Part shown: one piece after another, positions 8,995 to 60,610 of the stretch
Position numbering within the stretch: position 1 is the stretch's first letter
Layout of the letters: each line of letters begins with the position of its first letter
Made by a program: the position numbers and the translations under genes
Notes under the pieces: generated by a model
The model's input: the letters and a program-made list of their open reading frames with translations, nothing else
Database searches by the model: none
Told to the model about the DNA's origin: nothing
Assembly: GCA_002329335.1 (NCBI GenBank)
Contig: DCTY01000036.1
Span: 22,169 to 86,168 of the forward strand
Source: Christensenella sp. UBA1428
Lineage (GTDB): Bacteria > Bacillota > Clostridia > Christensenellales > UBA1750
Reading direction: 5' to 3'
DNA: 64,000 bases

Positions 8995-9031
8995 TTATAT
9001 ACCGTTTTGCGGGCGCGGTGCTTCAAACCGC

Positions 9032-9256
9032 ACCTGTGAGGCTGTCGAAAAAGTTTTTTCGACAGCCTCAAATGAAATCTGCGATTTCATTTGAAACAGC
9101 CCTGCTGCGCGCCTAAAGACGCTTGCAGGGCTGCAAAGTATGAAAATCTAACGATTTTCGTCCGTTCGCCGGCAAAGCCGGCGATGCCGGGATTGAAAGT
9201 CAAGGAAACTGCGTTTCCTTGACAATCTTTCCTCAAAGAAGTTTTTTGACACGCTG
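9032..9256 (+). repeat. Multi-hairpin intergenic repeat, copy A (full length, about 225 bp)
   Basis: Contains hairpins GAGGCTGTCGAAAAA/TTTTTCGACAGCCTC, AAATGAAAT/ATTTCATTT, GAAAATC/GATTTTC, CCGGC/GCCGG and GTCAAGGAAAC/GTTTCCTTGAC. Ends in TTTTTTGACACGC. Flanked by a 23-bp direct repeat (9009-9031 and 9257-9279). Confidence 0.9.
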
Positions 9257-9258
9257 GC

Positions 9259-9289
9259 GGGCGCGGTGCTTCAAACCGCGCCCGTTTTC
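9259..9289 (+). terminator. Rho-independent terminator of the uxaE-like gene
   Basis: GGGCGCGGT-GCTTCAA-ACCGCGCCC followed by GTTTTC. Confidence 0.8.
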
Positions 9290-9309: not shown

Positions 9310-9516
9310 TTGAAACGGCGTGTCCGGCATGGAAAGGAATGGCGCGCAATTAAGACCTTATATTACCAGCTGATTCGCTACGACGGCGACTACGCCGTTT
9401 TAAAGGACCGTACAAACGGGGAGGAAATTCTGGTGGCGCGGGCGTTTTTGCCCGAGCAGGCACAGGAGGGCTCCTTTTTACGCTATGAACTTCTCAGCTA
9501 TACCATGGACGAATAA
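9310..9516 (+). CDS. DUF3006-like small protein (start codon uncertain)
   Basis: Core IRYDGDYAVLKD...EEILVARAFLPE..EGSFL resembles DUF3006. No in-frame ATG; the track uses TTG at 9310. Confidence 0.5.
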   Translation: MKRRVRHGKEWRAIKTLYYQLIRYDGDYAVLKDRTNGEEILVARAFLPEQAQEGSFLRYELLSYTMDE

Positions 9517-10961: not shown

Positions 10962-12356
10962 ATGACCACAAGTCCCAAATTCAAACGCCTGATCGGCGAC
11001 AAAGCCTTTTATACTGCGGTGCTGGCCATTTCCGTGCCGATCATGGTGCAAAACGGCATTACCAATTTTGTCAGCCTGCTGGACAATCTGATGGTCGGCC
11101 AGGTCGGCACGGAGCAGATGTCCGGCGTGGCGATCGTCAACCAGATCCTGTTCGTCTTTAACCTTTGTATCTTCGGGGCGACCTCGGGCGCCGGCATTTT
11201 CTGCGCGCAATTTTTCGGCAGCGGCAATCATGAGGGCATCCGGGACGCGTTCCGTTTTAAAATTCTCATCTGCATCGGGTTGTGCATTGCCGGTACGGCG
11301 GTGTTTTTATCCGCCGGCGATCCGCTCATTGAGATGTTCCTGCACGAGGGCAGCGACAGCGGCGATCTGATGCTGACGCTCCAGAGCGGCCGGGCGTATC
11401 TGCGCATGATGCTGGTCGGGCTGATCTTTTTTGCGGTCAAGGACGCGTATGCCAGCACGCTGCGCGAGATGGGGCAGACGGTGCTGCCGATGAAGGCGGG
11501 CATTGCCGCGGTGCTGGTCAATCTGGTTTTTAACTATATTTTTATTTTCGGCAAGCTCGGGCTGCCGGCGATGGGCGTAGTCGGCGCGGCGCTGGCAACG
11601 GTGATTTCAAGAATCGTCGAGTGCGTCATCGTCGTTGCTTGGACGCACGCGCACAGCGCGCTTTGTCCGTTTATCCGCGGCGCGTATCAGAAATTCCGAA
11701 TTCCGCTGTCGCTTTGCCGGCAGATTCTGGCCAAGGGCATGCCCCTGCTGGTCAACGAAGGGCTTTGGTCGCTGGCGATGACGGTTTTGATGCAGTGCTA
11801 TTCCCTGCGCGGTCTGGCCGTTGTTGCGGCGATGAACATTGCCTCCACGATCAACAATTTGTTCTCCATCGTGTTTATGTCGATGGGCAACGCGGTGGCG
11901 ATCATCTCCGGCCGCCTGCTGGGCGCAAACGAGCACGAGCAGGCGCGGCTGAGCGTTTCGCGCATGATCGCGTTTTCCGTAGCGGTCGCCGCCGTGGTTG
12001 GAGCGGTGGTGGCCTGTCTGTCGCATCTTTTTCCCGCGCTTTACAACACGACCGACGAGGTGCGCGCCCTGGCGGCCAAGTTTATTTTGATCGTCGCCTG
12101 CGTTATGCCGATCCATGCGTTTAACCATGCGTCCTATTTCGCGCTGCGCTCCGGCGGCAAGACCATCGTCACCTTCTTTTTTGACAGCGTCTATACCTGG
12201 GTGGTGTGCGTTCCGCTGGCGTTTTATCTGTCGCGCTTTACTGCCATGCCGATCGTACCGCTTTATGCCATTGTGCAGAGCGTGGATCTGATCAAATGCA
12301 CGGTGGGCTATATCTTGATAAAAAAAGGCGTTTGGGTCAACAATATCGTTGCCTGA
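10962..12356 (+). CDS. MATE-family efflux transporter
   Basis: 464 aa, polytopic. PIMVQNGITNFVSLLDNLMVGQ pattern. RBS AAGGAG. Confidence 0.9.
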   Translation: MTTSPKFKRLIGDKAFYTAVLAISVPIMVQNGITNFVSLLDNLMVGQVGTEQMSGVAIVNQILFVFNLCIFGATSGAGIFCAQFFGSGNHEGIRDAFRFKILICIGLCIAGTAVFLSAGDPLIEMFLHEGSDSGDLMLTLQSGRAYLRMMLVGLIFFAVKDAYASTLREMGQTVLPMKAGIAAVLVNLVFNYIFIFGKLGLPAMGVVGAALATVISRIVECVIVVAWTHAHSALCPFIRGAYQKFRIPLSLCRQILAKGMPLLVNEGLWSLAMTVLMQCYSLRGLAVVAAMNIASTINNLFSIVFMSMGNAVAIISGRLLGANEHEQARLSVSRMIAFSVAVAAVVGAVVACLSHLFPALYNTTDEVRALAAKFILIVACVMPIHAFNHASYFALRSGGKTIVTFFFDSVYTWVVCVPLAFYLSRFTAMPIVPLYAIVQSVDLIKCTVGYILIKKGVWVNNIVA

Positions 12357-17879: not shown

Positions 17880-17939
17880 AGAAACTGCGCGGGCGCCGTG
17901 CAGAAGATCCTTTTTCCCTGTTTTATTCCAATGCCGCTG

Positions 17940-18138
17940 ATGACAGCCTCAAATGAAACCTGCGATTTCATTTGAACAGCTCCGCCGTGCGCCGAAAGAT
18001 ACTTGCAGGGCTGCAAAGTACGAAAATCGAACGATTTTCGTCCGCTTAGCGGCAAAGCCGGCAATGCTGGGATGGAACGTCAAGAGGGCTTCGTTTCCCT
18101 GACAAGCCCTTCTTAAGGATATTTTTTTGACATGCTCA
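17940..18138 (+). repeat. Multi-hairpin intergenic repeat, copy B (lacks the left half of the first hairpin)
   Basis: Aligns with copy A from GACAGCCTCAAATGAAA to TTTTTTTGACATGCT. Flanked by AATGCCGCTG at 17930-17939 and 18139-18148. Confidence 0.9.
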
Positions 18139-18140
18139 AA

Positions 18141-18167
18141 TGCCGCTGCTCACAGCGGCATTTTTTT
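18141..18167 (+). terminator. Rho-independent terminator after the AbrB-family gene
   Basis: TGCCGCTG-CTCA-CAGCGGCA followed by TTTTTTT. Confidence 0.85.
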
Positions 18168-27949: not shown

Positions 27950-28972
27950 ATGAAAATTCTGGTAACGGGCGGCGCGGGTTATATCGGCAGCCATACCTGC
28001 GTGGAATTGCTGGCGGCGGGCTATGAGGTTGCCGTAGTGGATAATCTGGTCAATTCCAGCGCGCAGGCCATTTCGCGGGTGGCGCGCATTGCGGGCAGGC
28101 CGCTGGCGTTTTATCCGATCGACGTGTGTGACCGCGCAGCGCTTGAAACGGTGTTCAAGGCCGAATCGCCCGATGCGGTGATTCACTTTGCGGGGCTGAA
28201 AGCCGTTGGCGAATCGGTTGAAAAGCCGCTGGCATATTACCGCAACAATCTGGACGCGACGCTGTCGCTTTGCGAGACGATGGGCAAATTCGGCGTAAAA
28301 CGCATTTTGTTCAGCTCCTCTGCAACGGTCTATGGCGACGCGGCGCAGATGCCCATCGCCGAAAGCTGCCCCAAGGGCGTCTGCACCAATCCCTACGGAT
28401 GGACCAAATGGATGATCGAACAGATTTTGACCGATCTGACAAGCGCGCAGCCGGATTGGCAGGTGACGCTGCTGCGCTATTTTAACCCCATCGGTGCGCA
28501 TCCAAGCGGGCTGATCGGCGAAGATCCGCGCGGCATTCCCAATAACCTGTTGCCGTATGTGGCGCAGGTGGCGGTGGGCAAGCTGCCGTATCTGCGCATA
28601 TTCGGCGACGATTATCCGACCGTTGACGGAACCGGCGTGCGCGATTACCTGCATGTGGTGGACTTGGCGCGCGGGCATGTGATGGCGCTGGCGGCGCAGC
28701 GCGCGGGCGTGCAGGTTTATAACCTGGGCACCGGCAGGGGCAGCAGCGTGCTGGAGGTTGTGCGTGCGTTTGAACAGGCCAGCGGCAGGCCGGTGCCGTA
28801 CCGGATTGCTCCGCGCCGGCCCGGCGATGTGGCGGAAAACTATTGCGATCCGTCCCTGGCGCTTCGGGAGCTTGGCTGGAAAACGCAGTATGACCTGCAT
28901 ACGATGTGCGTGGACGCCTGGAACTGGCAGCGGCAAAACCCGGACGGGTACCCGGAAAATGCCGGCGCGTAA
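27950..28972 (+). CDS. galE: UDP-glucose 4-epimerase
   Basis: MKILVTGGAGYIGSH, YGWTKWM (YxxxK) and overall GalE collinearity. RBS AGGAGGA. Confidence 0.9.
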   Translation: MKILVTGGAGYIGSHTCVELLAAGYEVAVVDNLVNSSAQAISRVARIAGRPLAFYPIDVCDRAALETVFKAESPDAVIHFAGLKAVGESVEKPLAYYRNNLDATLSLCETMGKFGVKRILFSSSATVYGDAAQMPIAESCPKGVCTNPYGWTKWMIEQILTDLTSAQPDWQVTLLRYFNPIGAHPSGLIGEDPRGIPNNLLPYVAQVAVGKLPYLRIFGDDYPTVDGTGVRDYLHVVDLARGHVMALAAQRAGVQVYNLGTGRGSSVLEVVRAFEQASGRPVPYRIAPRRPGDVAENYCDPSLALRELGWKTQYDLHTMCVDAWNWQRQNPDGYPENAGA

Positions 28973-28983
28973 AAGCGGCGCTT

Positions 28984-29151
28984 TGGCGTGTCAAAAAACA
29001 TCCTTGAGGAAGGATCGTCAAGAAAGCGCAGCCTTCTTGACGTTCAATCCCGGCATCGCCGGCTTTTCCGCTAAGAGAACGAAAATCGTTGAATTTTCGT
29101 CCTTTGCAGCCCTGAAAGCGTCTTTGTGCGCGCGGCAGAGCGGCTTCAAAC
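28984..29151 (-). repeat. Multi-hairpin intergenic repeat, copy C (reverse orientation, 5'-truncated)
   Basis: The reverse complement aligns with copy A from TTTGAAG...AAAGACGCT..CAGGGCTGCAAAG to GTTTTTTGACACGCC. Flanked by GCGGCGCTT at 28975-28983 and 29152-29160. Confidence 0.9.
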
Positions 29152-29322
29152 GCGGCGCTTGCCATTTGGCGGGAATTGGATTATACTGAAAGCGCATGAA
29201 ATATGAATTGAAAATACGCAGCGCCGTTTTTCGGCTTGCCGGGGCGGGCATGTGATGGCGATGCCTGCGCGGGCGGGGATGCGGCGGCGTCTTTTCAAGC
29301 ACAAAGAAAGGGAACCATTGCG

Positions 29323-40675: not shown

Positions 40676-42907
40676 CTATATGACCTCATGGAAGGTACGG
40701 GAGATGACCTCGCGCTGCTGCTCGCGCGACAGCTTGTTGAAATTGACCGCATAGCCGGAAACGCGGATGGTCAGGTTGGGGTAATTTTCCGGGTGTTCAT
40801 AGGCGTCCATCAGGGTTTGGCGATTGAGCACATTGACGTTGAGATGATGCGCGCCCTGGCCGAAATACCCGTCGAGCAGATGCACCAGGTTTTCCGAGCG
40901 CGCCTGCTCGGTTTTGCCCAGCGCCTGCGGCACGATGGAGAAGGTGTTGGAAATGCCGTCCTTGCATACCTGATAGGACAGCTTGGCAACCGAGTTGAGC
41001 GCAGCCAGCGCGCCGTTTTGCTCGCGTCCATGCATGGGATTGGCGCCGGGGGCAAACGGTTCGCCTCTTTTGCGCCCGTCCGGTGTGGAGCCGGTCTTTT
41101 TGCCGTATACGACGTTGGAGGTGATCGTCAGAATCGACAGCGTCGGCTCAGCGTCGCGATAAAGCGGGTGTTTTTTCAGTTCGTCGTGGAACTTTTTGAC
41201 CTGCTCGCAGGCAATCTGATCCACCCGGTCGTCGTCGTTGCCATAGGCCGGATACGTTCCTTCAATCTCAAAATCGCAGATCAGCCCGGTTTGCTCGTCG
41301 CGAATGGGGCGTACCCGGGCATAGCGGATGGCGGAGAGCGAGTCGGCGACAACCGAAAGCCCGGCGGCGCCAAAGGCCATGAACCGATGCACATTGGTAT
41401 CGTGCAGCGCCATCTGCGTCTTTTCATAGGCATATTTGTCGTGCATATAATGGATGACGTTCATGGTGTTGGCATACAGCCCCGCCAGCCATTGCCGGTA
41501 AAAGTCCAGCCGCTGGCACACTTTGTCATAATCGAGCACATCGTCCTCATAGACCGGCATCACAGGGCCGACCTGTTCGTTTTTGATTTCGTCGCGGCCG
41601 CCGTTGAGCGCCATTAAAAGCAGCTTGGCCAGATTGGCGCGCGCGCCGAAAAACTGCATGTCCTTGCCCACGCGCATTGCCGAGACGCAGCAGGCGATGG
41701 CGTAATCGTCGCCGAAAATGGGGCGCATCAGGTCGTCGTTTTCGTACTGGATGGCGTCCGTATCGCAGGAAACCCTGGCGCAGAAGCGTTTAAACGGCTC
41801 CGGAAGCGCCTGCGACCACAGCACCGTCAAATTGGGCTCGGGCGCGGGCTTGAGATTGTAGAGCGTGTTGAGCATGCGGTAGGTGTTTTTGGTCACCAGC
41901 GTGCGGCCGTCCTGCCCCATGCCGCCCAGCGCCTCGGTAATCCACATCGGGTCGCCGCCAAACAGCTCGTTGTATTCGGGCGTGCGCAGGTGCCGCGCCA
42001 TGCGCAGCTTGATGACCAGATCGTCCATCAGCTCCTGCGCCTGCTGCTCGGTGAGCAGACCGGCTTTCAAGTCGCGCTCAAAGTAGATATCCAGGAACGT
42101 GGCGGTGCGCCCAAAGCTCATCGCCGCGCCGTTTTGCTCCTTGATAGCGCCCAGATAGGCAAAATACAGCCACTGCACCGCCTCGTGTGCGTTGGCTGCG
42201 GGGCGGGAAATATCGCAGCCGTACATGGCCGCCATGTCGACGAGCATGCCAAGGAAATTGATCTGCTGGAAAAGCTCCTCCTGCTGGCGGATATGCTCCA
42301 CGTCCATCGGTTCCAGCGCCAGAGCGGCCTTGTCCTTCTTTTTCTGCTCGATCAGATACGCCACGCCGTAGAGCGGAACGCGCCGGTAATCGCCGATGAT
42401 CCGGCCGCGGCCATAGGCGTCGGGCAGGCCGGTGATCAGCCCGCAGTGGCGCGCTGCGCGCATCTGGCTGTTGTACGCGCGAAAAACGCCGTCGTTATGG
42501 GTGGTGCGGAATTTAAATTCTTCCTCGACTTTGGAGGAAAGCTCATAGCCGTAGGCGCGGCAGGCGTCGCGCGTCATGCGCAGCCCCCCAAAGGGATTGA
42601 CCCCGCGCTTGAGGGGCCGGTCGGTCTGCAGGCCGACGATCAGCTCATTTTCCCGATCCAGATAGCCGGGCTTGTAGGTCAAAAGCGACATGACCGTGTG
42701 CGTGTCCACGTCCAGCACGCCGCCGAACTCCTGTTCCAGAGTCATGAGGTTTTCAAGCTTGTGCAGCAGTTTTTCGGTGCGCGCCGTCGGGCCGGTCAAA
42801 AAAGCGCCGTCCGATTCATAGGGCGTGTAGTTTTGCTGGATAAAATCGCGTACGTCGATGGTTTCCTGCCAGCGGCCGGGGTTGAAGCCTTCCCATTGTG
42901 CGGTCAT
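40676..42907 (-). CDS. pflB: Formate C-acetyltransferase (pyruvate formate-lyase)
   Basis: 743 aa. Active-site ACCVSAM and glycyl-radical motif RVSGYAV. RBS AAGGAGG. Confidence 0.95.
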
Positions 42908-43219
42908 TTCAGACGCCTCCTTTTTTTATCAAAACACCGCCTGCTGTCTTTTTGAAAACAAAAAGACAGCATCAAAAGCGATGCTGCCCAGACGGTCGGC
43001 TGTTGTCGGCGCTCATTCCCCTGTGGTAATCCACAAAACCCGTCAGTCATAAGCACCCCTGATCTGCCTTCACTATAGCACAGCGCGCCGGAGGCGTCAA
43101 GGGTGCGCGGCAAAAAAGAAATTTGGCCGAAAAAATGGACAGGACGGCAAAAAAGCGATATAATAAAGCTGCAACGATATTTTCATAATTTTGTGTCAAA
43201 CCCGAAAGGAGTGTCTGTT

Positions 43220-44751: not shown

Positions 44752-44962
44752 CGGTCAGCAAAATATATTTGAGAAAGATTTGTCAATAAGCCGTCGTTGT
44801 CTGGACGTCAATTCCGGCGTCGGCGGCGGATAAAAGCGCAAGCGTTCCTTGCGTTGCAGCCATGCAAGCGTATTTTGGCGCGCGGCAGGGGCGCTGCATA
44901 TGAAAGCGAAAGCGCTGGTTTTATTTGAGGCTGCCGAAAGGACTTTTCGACAGCCTCATTGT
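44752..44962 (-). repeat. Multi-hairpin intergenic repeat, copy E (reverse orientation, near full length but diverged)
   Basis: Contains GAGGCTGCCGAAAGG/CTTTTCGACAGCCTC, GTTGCAGCCATGCAAGCGT...GCGCGCGGCAG and CAATTCCGGCGTCGGCGGC, alignable to copies A and C. Flanked by AAAACGG on both sides. Confidence 0.7.
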
Positions 44963-56615: not shown

Positions 56616-56769
56616 GAAATAAAAGACCTGGTTGGCGCCAGCGAACGAAAAGGCGAAAAGATCCGGCGCATTTGCGCAAAATTGCGGCGCGCGGATTTTA
56701 TGGATGAAAAATTTGATGTTGGGGCTTGACAAAATGTGCGTCGGGTGCTTATAATCATTGCATAATGTG

Positions 56770-57030
56770 ACGACCGGAAAGAAGTACTTGGGTTCGCCCT
56801 TTCAGAGAGCTGCGGTTTGGTGCAACGCGGCAGGGAGCCTTGGGAAATACATTCCGTGAGCAGCGCACCAAACGGCTTTGGCCAAGTAGGCTGCGACGGG
56901 CGCGCCCGTTATCGCGATAGGGTATGCATGTACCTGAAGGCTGTCTTTGCTTTGACACAGGCAGCGAACCGAGGTGGTACCACGGGCAAGGAATTTCCGC
57001 TCGTCCTCCGTAAGGAGGACGGGCTTTTTT
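56770..57030 (+). promoter_or_regulatory. T-box riboswitch leader (candidate Tyr specifier)
   Basis: AGAGAG bay, distal-loop GGUGCAA, F-box CCGUUA, T-box GAGGUGGUACCACGG. Terminator CGTCCTCCGTAAGGAGGACG plus T-run. Promoter TTGACA-18-TATAAT at 56726-56755. Confidence 0.85.
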
Positions 57031-58792: not shown

Positions 58793-60433
58793 ATGCCCAT
58801 TACAGATTTGCTGATCCGCAATGCTCAGCAGTACGGCAGCGAGGTTGCGCTGGTAGAAATCAACCCGGATGTGTGCGAGGTGCGCCGGCGCGTTTCCTGG
58901 CGTGAATACGAGCTGATCGAGGAGGGCGCCGCACAGACTTTCCGGCGCGAGATCACCTGGCGCGCGTTTAATGAAAAGGCCAATCGCTGCGCCAATCTGC
59001 TTTTGCAGCGCGGCGTGCGCAAGGGCGATAAGGTGGCAATTTTGCTGATGAACGGCCTGGAATGGCTGCCGGTCTATTTTGGTATTTTAAAAACCGGCGC
59101 GCTGGCAGTGCCGCTCAATTACCGCTATACCGCCGATGAAATCGCGTACTGTCTGGATCTGGCGGATGTGGACGCGCTGTTTTTCGGTCCGGAGTTTATC
59201 GGGCGCATCGAGGAAATTGTGGACGAAAAGATGCCGCGCGTCAAGCTTTTGCTCTATGTCGGCGACGCTTGCCCGACGTTTGCGGAAAACTATCTGCATC
59301 TGGCGGCCAACTGCGATTCGAGCGAGCCGGGCGTCCCGCTTTGCGATCAGGACGACGCGGCGATCTATTTTTCCTCCGGCACGACCGGGTTTCCCAAGGC
59401 GATTTTGCATCCGCACCGCAGCCTGATGCACGCCTGTGTGGTGGAACAAAAGCACCATGGTCAAACCCATGACGACGTATTTTTGTGCATACCGCCGCTT
59501 TACCATACCGGCGCCAAAATGCACTGGTTTGGCTCGCTGCTCTCCGGCGGACGCGCGGTGCTGCTCAAGGGTGTGCGCCCGGAGGTGATCTTTGATACCG
59601 TTTCGCGCGAGCACTGCACGATCGTCTGGCTTTTGGTGCCCTGGGCGCAGGATATTCTGGACGCCATCGACCGCGGACAGCTGGATCCGGCCAAATACGA
59701 GCTTTCCCAGTGGCGTCTGATGCATATCGGCGCGCAGCCGGTGCCGCCCAGCCTGATCAAGCGCTGGAAAAAAATATTCCCGCACCATGATTATGACACC
59801 AACTACGGCCTGAGCGAATCCATCGGCCCCGGCTGCGTGCATCTGGGGATTGAGAACATCGACCATGTCGGCGCAATCGGCGTGCCGGGCTATGGCTGGC
59901 AGGTTCGGATTGTCGACGAGCAGCGCCGTCCGGTTGCTCAGGGCGAGGTCGGCGAGCTGGCGGTGTATGGCCCCGGCGTCATGACCTGCTATTACAAGGA
60001 TGAAAAGGCCACGGCGGAGGTGCTCTCCGACGGATGGCTGTATACCGGCGATATGGCGATGCAGGATCCGGATGGATTTATTTATCTGGTCGACCGTAAA
60101 AAGGACGTCATCATCTCCGGCGGCGAAAACCTCTATCCGGTGCAGATCGAGGATTATCTGCGCGCCTGTCCGCAGATCAGCGACGTGGCGGTTATTGGCC
60201 TGCCCGATCCGCGTCTGGGCGAAATCGCCGCGGCGATCATCCAGGTTAAGGAGGGGCAATCCCTCACCGAAGCGCAGGTGCAGGATTTTTGCCGGGAGCT
60301 GCCGCGCTATAAGCGGCCCAGACGCATCATTTTTGCCGATGTGCCGCGCAATCCAACCGGTAAGATTGAAAAGCCGCTTTTGCGTAAAATCTACTGCGGG
60401 GAGAGCCTGGTGGCCTCTCAGGTGCGCGGATAA
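58793..60433 (+). CDS. AMP-dependent acyl-CoA synthetase/ligase
   Basis: AMP-binding motif YFSSGTTGFPKAI, YGLSE, TGDMA and C-terminal PRNPTGKI. Confidence 0.85.
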   Translation: MPITDLLIRNAQQYGSEVALVEINPDVCEVRRRVSWREYELIEEGAAQTFRREITWRAFNEKANRCANLLLQRGVRKGDKVAILLMNGLEWLPVYFGILKTGALAVPLNYRYTADEIAYCLDLADVDALFFGPEFIGRIEEIVDEKMPRVKLLLYVGDACPTFAENYLHLAANCDSSEPGVPLCDQDDAAIYFSSGTTGFPKAILHPHRSLMHACVVEQKHHGQTHDDVFLCIPPLYHTGAKMHWFGSLLSGGRAVLLKGVRPEVIFDTVSREHCTIVWLLVPWAQDILDAIDRGQLDPAKYELSQWRLMHIGAQPVPPSLIKRWKKIFPHHDYDTNYGLSESIGPGCVHLGIENIDHVGAIGVPGYGWQVRIVDEQRRPVAQGEVGELAVYGPGVMTCYYKDEKATAEVLSDGWLYTGDMAMQDPDGFIYLVDRKKDVIISGGENLYPVQIEDYLRACPQISDVAVIGLPDPRLGEIAAAIIQVKEGQSLTEAQVQDFCRELPRYKRPRRIIFADVPRNPTGKIEKPLLRKIYCGESLVASQVRG

Positions 60434-60440
60434 CGGCGCT

Positions 60441-60572
60441 ATGCAGGGATGCAAAGTGCGAAAATCTAACGGTTTTCGTCGGCTTAGCGGCAAAACCGGC
60501 AATGCCGGATTGAAAGTCAGGGAAATCGCGTTTCCTTGACAATCCTTCCTTAAAAATGTTCTTTGACACACT
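60441..60572 (+). repeat. Multi-hairpin intergenic repeat, copy D (strongly 5'-truncated)
   Basis: Aligns with the copy A 3' part from GCAGGGATGCAAAG through GAAAATCTAACGGTTTTC and GTCAGGGAAATCGCGTTTCCTTGAC to CTTTGACACACT. Lies between the ligase stop and its terminator. Confidence 0.9.
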
Positions 60573-60574
60573 GA

Positions 60575-60610
60575 AACGGATCTGCCGGTATACATGGCAG
60601 ATCCGTTTTT
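60575..60610 (+). terminator. Rho-independent terminator after the acyl-CoA ligase gene
   Basis: AACGGATCTGCC-GGTATACAT-GGCAGATCCGTT followed by TTT. Confidence 0.85.

Follow-up and report, generated by a model that had tools for sequence, protein, structure and literature searches.

Insertion sequences that target hairpins are known from the IS1182 family. IS1272 and TnSha1 insert into terminator hairpins without sequence specificity, deleting the hairpin (PMC4923244). According to the cruciform model of this reaction, joining at the 5' feet would duplicate the whole stem-loop (PMC5678879). On our comparison, these two are the closest precedent for the intergenic repeat described here, which recurs in a 64-kb stretch of DNA (the window). 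Their targets, as here, are stem-loops without a shared sequence, mostly terminators just 3' of genes (PMC4923244, PMC5678879). They likewise insert at the hairpin base and carry terminal inverted repeats of ~16 bp that are often imperfect, and the published model explicitly permits duplication of a whole stem-loop (PMC5678879), as is found in copies A, F and G of the repeat. They differ in that the hairpin is partly or wholly deleted without duplication, whereas here it is duplicated (26-29 bp), in that they are 1.9-3 kb long and carry a DDE transposase, whereas the repeat is ~220 bp and non-coding, and in their hosts, which are low-GC staphylococci.

Other described elements share parts of this pattern. 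The bacterial MITEs (Correia/NEMIS, ERIC, RUP, bcr1, QMITE and Chunjie) are also small, non-coding and multi-copy, with terminal inverted repeats, target duplication, an intergenic bias and stable predicted hairpins (PMC10969869, PMC3184786), and they include families with 5'-truncated copies (QMITE2). Their duplications are short and fixed (TA, or 2-9 bp) and lie at sequence-defined or AT-rich sites, whereas those found here are long, variable and hairpin-sized. In the collections searched, no DNA similarity was found. Group IIC introns target the base of intrinsic-terminator hairpins, always facing the same way with respect to the T-run, and often occur as 5'-truncated copies, but group II insertion takes place without target duplication, and the repeat has no ribozyme and consists of ~220 nt of simple hairpins. 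The SPRITE/BOX repeats of Streptococcus pneumoniae are modular, hairpin-rich and intergenic, some with terminator-like ends (PMC10969869). They differ from the present repeat in organism and in sequence. To our knowledge, no hairpin-duplicating insertion signature has been described for SPRITE/BOX.

The family reported here is genuine, previously undescribed and restricted to one lineage, and it is a known kind of selfish DNA, although an insertion signature in which the hairpin is duplicated is uncommon. We consider it rather probable that it is a family of small, non-autonomous, MITE-like DNA transposons of one uncultured Oscillospiraceae-type lineage, moved by an enzyme acting in trans that targets DNA structure. 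The preliminary description of a dispersed, non-coding, multi-hairpin intergenic repeat is upheld. It did not include the duplications, the series of 5' truncations, the fixed 3' end or the inverted repeats, which place the repeat among mobile elements of the MITE type rather than among structured-RNA genes or unclassifiable repeats.

Copies and anatomy of the repeat

An nhmmer profile of the copies found exactly five in the window (E 9e-67 to 4e-42), the rest being noise. In a repeat search, A, B and D matched one another directly, and C matched A and B in inverted orientation (149-165 nt, 82-83% identity). The five dispersed copies in both orientations that had first been proposed were thus recovered:

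Copy A, 9038..9256 (+): full length, 219 nt; nhmmer E 9e-67; covariance model R1, 144.9 bits on the 3' half
Copy B, 17948..18135 (+): 5'-truncated, without the left arm of H1; nhmmer E 9e-63
Copy C, 28984..29147 (-): 5'-truncated, without H1 and H2; nhmmer E 3e-56; inverted relative to the flanking + strand genes
Copy E, 44752..44957 (-): full length, with a 14-nt internal deletion; nhmmer E 3e-46; covariance model 42.6 bits
Copy D, 60437..60573 (+): the most 5'-truncated copy, beginning inside H3; nhmmer E 4e-42

The density is ~1 copy per 13 kb. The copies are spaced 8.9-16 kb apart in both orientations and form no tandem array with unique spacers, in keeping with the earlier statement that this is not a CRISPR. 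All five lie between + strand genes, directly 3' of a stop codon, as had been noted, and C and E point the opposite way to these genes, so that copy orientation is independent of transcription. GC skew is positive across the whole window and nearly all genes are on the + strand; together with the orientation of the copies (three +, two -), this indicates that orientation is not tied to the direction of replication. Copy E, described at the outset as more diverged, is the most diverged copy, sharing 60-74% identity with the rest, and no duplication could be recognised at its flanks. Copy D had been placed at 60441; it is present, but starts at ~60437, after the stop codon, and the C-terminus of the upstream gene (CGESLVASQVRG) is native. 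Replacement of the acyl-CoA ligase C-terminus by copy D was considered and rejected, as this C-terminus is shared by homologues of the ligase, whose annotations are those of MAG proteins from Oscillospiraceae, Ruminococcaceae or Clostridia.

Further copies were found by translating the element and searching a protein database for spurious ORFs, which gave loci L013-L021. Four of the copies, all metagenome-derived, are at new loci:

Copy F (L020): full length, 95% identical to A
Copy G (L013): full length
Copy H (L014-L019): full length
Copy I (L021): 5' part degenerate

A second search for spurious ORFs added two more copies, known from peptides (translated ORFs) alone. The nine independent DNA copies are 137-220 nt in size, and pairwise identity among copies is 60-95%, which implies insertions of different ages. 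In the JGI sample that yielded G, contig L025 is 99% identical to the window, and the A and H loci both occur in sample ERR13612632, so that at least G and H are from samples holding the same species. No copy was found by nhmmer or the covariance model in 18-21 kb from each of the relatives with an 81-85% identical acyl-CoA ligase. Scans for two exact patterns gave no match in genome contigs or viral contigs and one chance match (L004) in metagenome contigs, negatives which are weak because the metagenome collection lacks some JGI samples: the JGI contigs carrying F and I (L020, L021) match the first pattern and yet were not returned. Copy A had no BLAST match among plasmids or phages.

The alignment of the nine copies shows a common 3' part ending TTTTTTGACAYGC, an end shared by A, B, C, D, F and I. 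Five copies (A, E, F, G and H) reach a common 5' end, (C/G)AGGCTGTCGAAAAA, and the starting points of B, C, I and D lie at increasing distances from it. The 5' end is thus missing in four copies of nine (B, C, D and I) and the 3' end in none. The full-length form is ~220 bp, with the ends 5' CAGGCTGTCGAAAAA ... TTTTTTGACACGCTG 3'. Copy A folds at -106 kcal/mol compared with -60 for shuffled sequences (z -9.9; other strand, z -11.1), as a chain of seven local hairpins where at least six had been reported:

Hairpin H1, 9038-9069 (+)
Hairpin H2, 9070-9092 (+)
Hairpin H3, 9097-9133 (+)
Hairpin H4, 9141-9160 (+)
Hairpin H5, 9168-9182 (+); alternative 9177-9191
Hairpin H6, 9199-9223 (+)
Hairpin H7, 9226-9239 (+)
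T6, 9242-9247 (+): 3' of H7
Terminal GACACGCTG, 9248-9256 (+): 3' of T6
Left terminal inverted repeat, 9038..9059 (+): GAGGCTGTCGAAAAAGTTTTTT
Right terminal inverted repeat, 9235..9256 (+): AAAGAAGTTTTTTGACACGCTG

The preliminary description had seen no terminal inverted repeats. The element does have them, although imperfect (16/22 in register in A and F, a value equalled by 0 of 100,000 shuffles) and degenerate in G, H and E. When reverse-complemented, the 5' half scores 28.9 bits against the covariance model of the 3' half, so that the element is a long dyad of hairpins with H4 as its pivot. Next to another hairpin stands H1, a perfect 15-bp palindrome. In H1 of copy H, two differences between strains were seen, one in each arm (L014:5060-5089 compared with L015:2305-2330; GGCTGCC / CGGCTGCC versus GGCAGCC / CAGCTGCC), one change restoring a pair and the other breaking one. 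A 14-mer inside a coding region, GACGCTGTCAAAAA (window 12178-12191, -), resembles the terminal repeat of the element with two mismatches; this solitary match is probably due to chance, as ~0.4 such matches are expected per window.

The repeat is non-coding, as first thought. Substitutions are spread evenly over the codon phases (22/42, 16/40 and 23/40), with no codon periodicity. A small protein was considered, since in A, B and C the reverse frame stays open over 55-67 codons, and was rejected, as this frame is shifted in D, copy E has the 14-nt deletion and periodicity is lacking. An outward promoter from the terminal TTGACA was likewise discarded, there being no matching -10 box and an intact terminator following directly. 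Public gene calls nevertheless include 'hypothetical proteins' of 40-106 aa that are translations of the repeat in either orientation (P0121-P0124, P0127 and P0128; L013, L014, L020 and L021), and the element has in this way seeded public databases with spurious entries. It also breaks short-read assemblies of this lineage: contigs end inside the element or at its edge in several samples (ends of L003, L022 and L023; starts of L001, L007 and L008), as expected of a multi-copy repeat, and assemblies of this organism are thereby fragmented.

No Rfam family was found on the copies when the window was scanned at the gathering score, the only matches being a T-box and a ZTP riboswitch elsewhere, and a permissive scan (E up to 1) of full-length copy F returned tpke11 alone, at chance level (E 0.18). 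The absence of a known family is therefore as first reported. Group II intron domains, domain V in particular, had no match at either threshold.

The stability of the multi-hairpin fold raises the question of whether this is a functional structured RNA (a 3' UTR module, an sRNA or a terminator cassette) that is kept for a role at the RNA level, mobility being incidental. Across the nine copies, 89% of base-pair cells are kept, compared with 38-49% in slid-partner controls, and eight pairs change on both sides; on the forward strand, G-U pairs outnumber A-C by 52 to 27; and six of the nine copies are co-oriented with the upstream gene. The kept hairpins, some with compensatory changes, could thus reflect an RNA-level role and in this respect speak against a transposon. 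These pair statistics are weak evidence, however, because the structure was derived from copy A, and hairpins are equally expected of a DNA element that is recognised by its structure. In addition, three of the nine copies are antisense to the surrounding transcription, the family is absent from close relatives and there is no Rfam relative. The varying extent of truncation also means that none of the hairpins preceding the 3' half (H4-H7) is obligatory. A conserved RNA function is therefore quite improbable in our estimate. As a consequence of insertion, on the other hand, copies co-oriented with the upstream gene would give it a structured 3' UTR, ending either at the element's own weak hairpin and T6 or at the original terminator, and ~200 nt of structured RNA would in this way be added to many 3' UTRs.

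Empty site, target duplications and terminator hairpins

Copy C occupies the site downstream of galE in the window and in L001 and L003. The same site is empty in L002, a Logan contig from a near-identical strain (ERR12641532). A 13-bp sequence, AAA(A/C)GCGGCGCTT, occurs once at the empty site and on both sides of copy C where the site is filled (L002:3260-3382 compared with window 28940-29200, with a few flank SNPs in the empty-site strain). This comparison proves that copy C was inserted, with a 13-bp duplication. Empty sites were also sought for A and D, and filled sites or broken contigs were all that was found. As the further copies lie at unrelated loci and an empty site exists, local segmental duplication does not account for the repeat.

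For each copy, the left and right flanks were compared by local alignment, and the result was set against 300 shuffles:

A: 29 bp, 27/29; reached by 0/300 shuffles
F: 26-28 bp; reached by 0/300 shuffles
B: 21 bp, 18/21; reached by 0/300 shuffles
C: 13 bp, 12/13; reached by 2/300 shuffles
H: 12 bp, 12/12; reached by 0/300 shuffles
G: 29 bp, 20/29, diverged; reached by 11/300 shuffles
D, E and I: no significant flanking repeat

The significant flanking repeats differ from locus to locus, and their lengths vary. A possible 5-nt duplication at copy D (AACGG; 60432-60436 and 60575-60579) was not significant. In the window, the target duplications are as follows:

Copy A, left, 9009..9037 (+): terminator hairpin without T-run, 2 mismatches
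Copy A, right, 9257..9285 (+): intact hairpin followed by TTTT, terminator-like; fold -24.9 kcal/mol
Copy B, left, 17927..17947 (+): TCCAATGCCGCTGATGACAGC; 18/21 against 18136-18156
Copy B, right, 18136..18156 (+): part of the intact terminator AATGCCGCTG-CTCA-CAGCGGCATTTTTTT
Copy C, element's 5' side, 29148..29160 (-): AAGCGCCGCGTTT
Copy C, element's 3' side, 28971..28983 (-): AAGCGCCGCTTTT; overlaps the galE stop codon

The left hairpin of A is partly similar to the left flank of E and was considered as a possible part of the element. It was excluded because an exact 20-mer of the duplication is confined to the two flanks of A, and because other full-length copies carry different hairpins. 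An inverted fragment of the element in the left flank of copy H was also considered and was unsupported, the match being of 9 nt only.

The target of insertion is a hairpin. Folding of the flanks showed a strong hairpin and then a T-run directly 3' of the element in A, B, D, F, G and I, including a strong terminator 3' of copy D (60575-60609, +; flank fold -24.2 kcal/mol), and the hairpins targeted by these six copies are unrelated to each other. At copy C the hairpin is weaker, with TTTT after it on the strand of the element. An intact hairpin and T-run are thus present on the element's 3' side in 6-7 of the nine copies. In A, F and G the stem-loop is duplicated in full (26-29 bp); in B the duplication reaches the middle of the 3' arm, and in C the loop. 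The 3' end of the element stops 0-6 nt short of the intact hairpin's 5' foot, with a few extra bases at this junction in A, F and H. The position of the 5' junction varies between the loop and the T-run; microhomology is seen there in B (ACAGC), in C (TTT) and possibly in H (TTCAG), and the left hairpin copy is always without a T-run. Flanking bases are not conserved among the copies. In a simple scan, 148 terminator-like sites were counted on both strands of the window, ~15 of them strong; as a rough estimate, the element would adjoin a hairpin by chance at ~1% of oriented positions or fewer. Many strong terminators are left unoccupied.

These duplications bear on a further possibility, that the repeat is a REP/BIME/REPIN or IS200/IS605-derived palindromic element moved as single-stranded DNA by an HUH transposase (RAYT or TnpA). 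It is intergenic, hairpin-rich and abundant, adjoins terminators and has sub-terminal hairpins at both ends, all of which would suit such an element. Elements of this kind, however, insert without target duplication, whereas the copies here have duplications of 12-29 bp. REP-type repeats have a unit of 20-40 nt with a conserved tetranucleotide head and a RAYT; the unit here is ~220 nt, has no such head and was seen with no RAYT, in keeping with the first description, which did not recognise it as REP/BIME. Elements derived from IS200/IS605 (PATE) are strand-biased, with a fixed 4-5 nt target and neither inverted termini nor duplication, whereas the present copies, with their unconserved flanks, are oriented 3:2 on a uniformly skewed replichore and so show no strand bias. 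We regard an origin of this type as very unlikely.

Proposed mechanism of insertion

Inverted termini, flanking duplications, an empty site, the lack of coding sequence and many dispersed copies of different ages together argue for a MITE-like non-autonomous transposon. On this reading, we infer that an enzyme supplied in trans recognises structure rather than sequence, its targets being inverted repeats such as intrinsic terminators contain, probably in the form of an extruded hairpin or cruciform. Strand transfer would join the ends of the element at the feet of the stem-loop, and gap repair would then duplicate the whole stem-loop, giving the 26-29 bp duplications of A, F and G. The expected outcome is an element whose 3' end lies 0-6 nt before an intact hairpin and T-run, with a left hairpin copy that has no T-run. 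The simplest account of copies B, C, D and I, and the one we favour, is later slippage deletion from the interior of the left hairpin copy into the element, across microhomologies of 3-5 nt; such deletions would lie next to the perfect H1 palindrome. A transposase gene, or a longer element with the same ends, was found neither in ~190 kb (the window and ~125 kb of related loci) nor in plasmids and phages.

Several features do not sit easily with this reading. The duplications, of variable length, are far outside the usual fixed DDE stagger of 2-12 bp. A precise 3' junction and a variable 5' junction form an asymmetry that concerted two-ended integration does not predict, and the bias of the hairpin and T-run to the 3' side is not explained by a symmetric cruciform target. 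The inverted repeats are imperfect, and truncation is one-sided (4/9 at the 5' end, 0/9 at the 3' end), the sole feature that possibly points to something more unusual.

Apart from the imperfect inverted repeats, these features would also fit a one-ended copying-in that is primed where the hairpin has its 5' foot and begins with a defined 3' end, the 5' end then being joined by microhomology, either by target-primed reverse transcription of an element transcript (SINE-like) or by rolling-circle or replicative copying with early stops. Such a process would account for a 3' end constant in 9/9 copies, for duplications varying between 12 and 29 bp, for microhomology at 5' junctions and extra bases at 3' junctions, and for the orientation of the element relative to the T-run; in addition, truncated copy C exactly abuts its duplication when the empty and filled sites are compared. 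Yet the fixed 3' end, the variable 5' truncation and the microhomology are equally explained by later deletions, and the H1 palindrome beside another hairpin is a plausible deletion hotspot that would account for the 5' bias. DNA transposons typically have terminal inverted repeats and a dyad layout, neither of which retroposition requires. The element ends with GACACGCTG after its own hairpin and T6, so that a terminated transcript would be without the true 3' end, and neither a reverse transcriptase nor an HUH gene turned up in the ~190 kb examined. We know of no bacterial precedent for one-ended copying of a small repeat. One-ended insertion is therefore unlikely, and an RNA-level function or a REP/IS200-type origin is less likely again. 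Its SINE-like form, in which a bacterial element primed at the 5' foot of the hairpin stops early and leaves 5'-truncated copies with their own duplications, we judge to be quite unlikely; if true, it would represent a target-primed and possibly RNA-mediated mechanism new for small non-coding bacterial repeats.

If structure-directed insertion of a MITE-like transposon is the correct reading, these copies are natural examples of whole-stem-loop duplication, until now a hypothetical pathway for hairpin-targeting insertion sequences. Terminators would then act as safe landing pads, on which a selfish element can spread densely without hitting genes.

Some neighbouring features of the window were also recorded. 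A T-box leader (56761-57011, +; Rfam 99.1 bits), whose terminator hairpin (56999-57024) precedes a long + strand ORF, has no relation to the repeat. A ZMP/ZTP riboswitch (42979-43060, -; 63.9 bits) lies upstream of a 743-aa - strand ORF (40676-42907). The window also contains a Spo0A_C gene, which together with the T-box and the ligase homologues marks the host as an uncultured, gut-type Clostridia resembling Oscillospiraceae. A small ORF (9310-9516, +), open in one frame, lies between copy A and the MatE-type gene downstream; it has no ATG near the expected start and a possible TTG at 9310.
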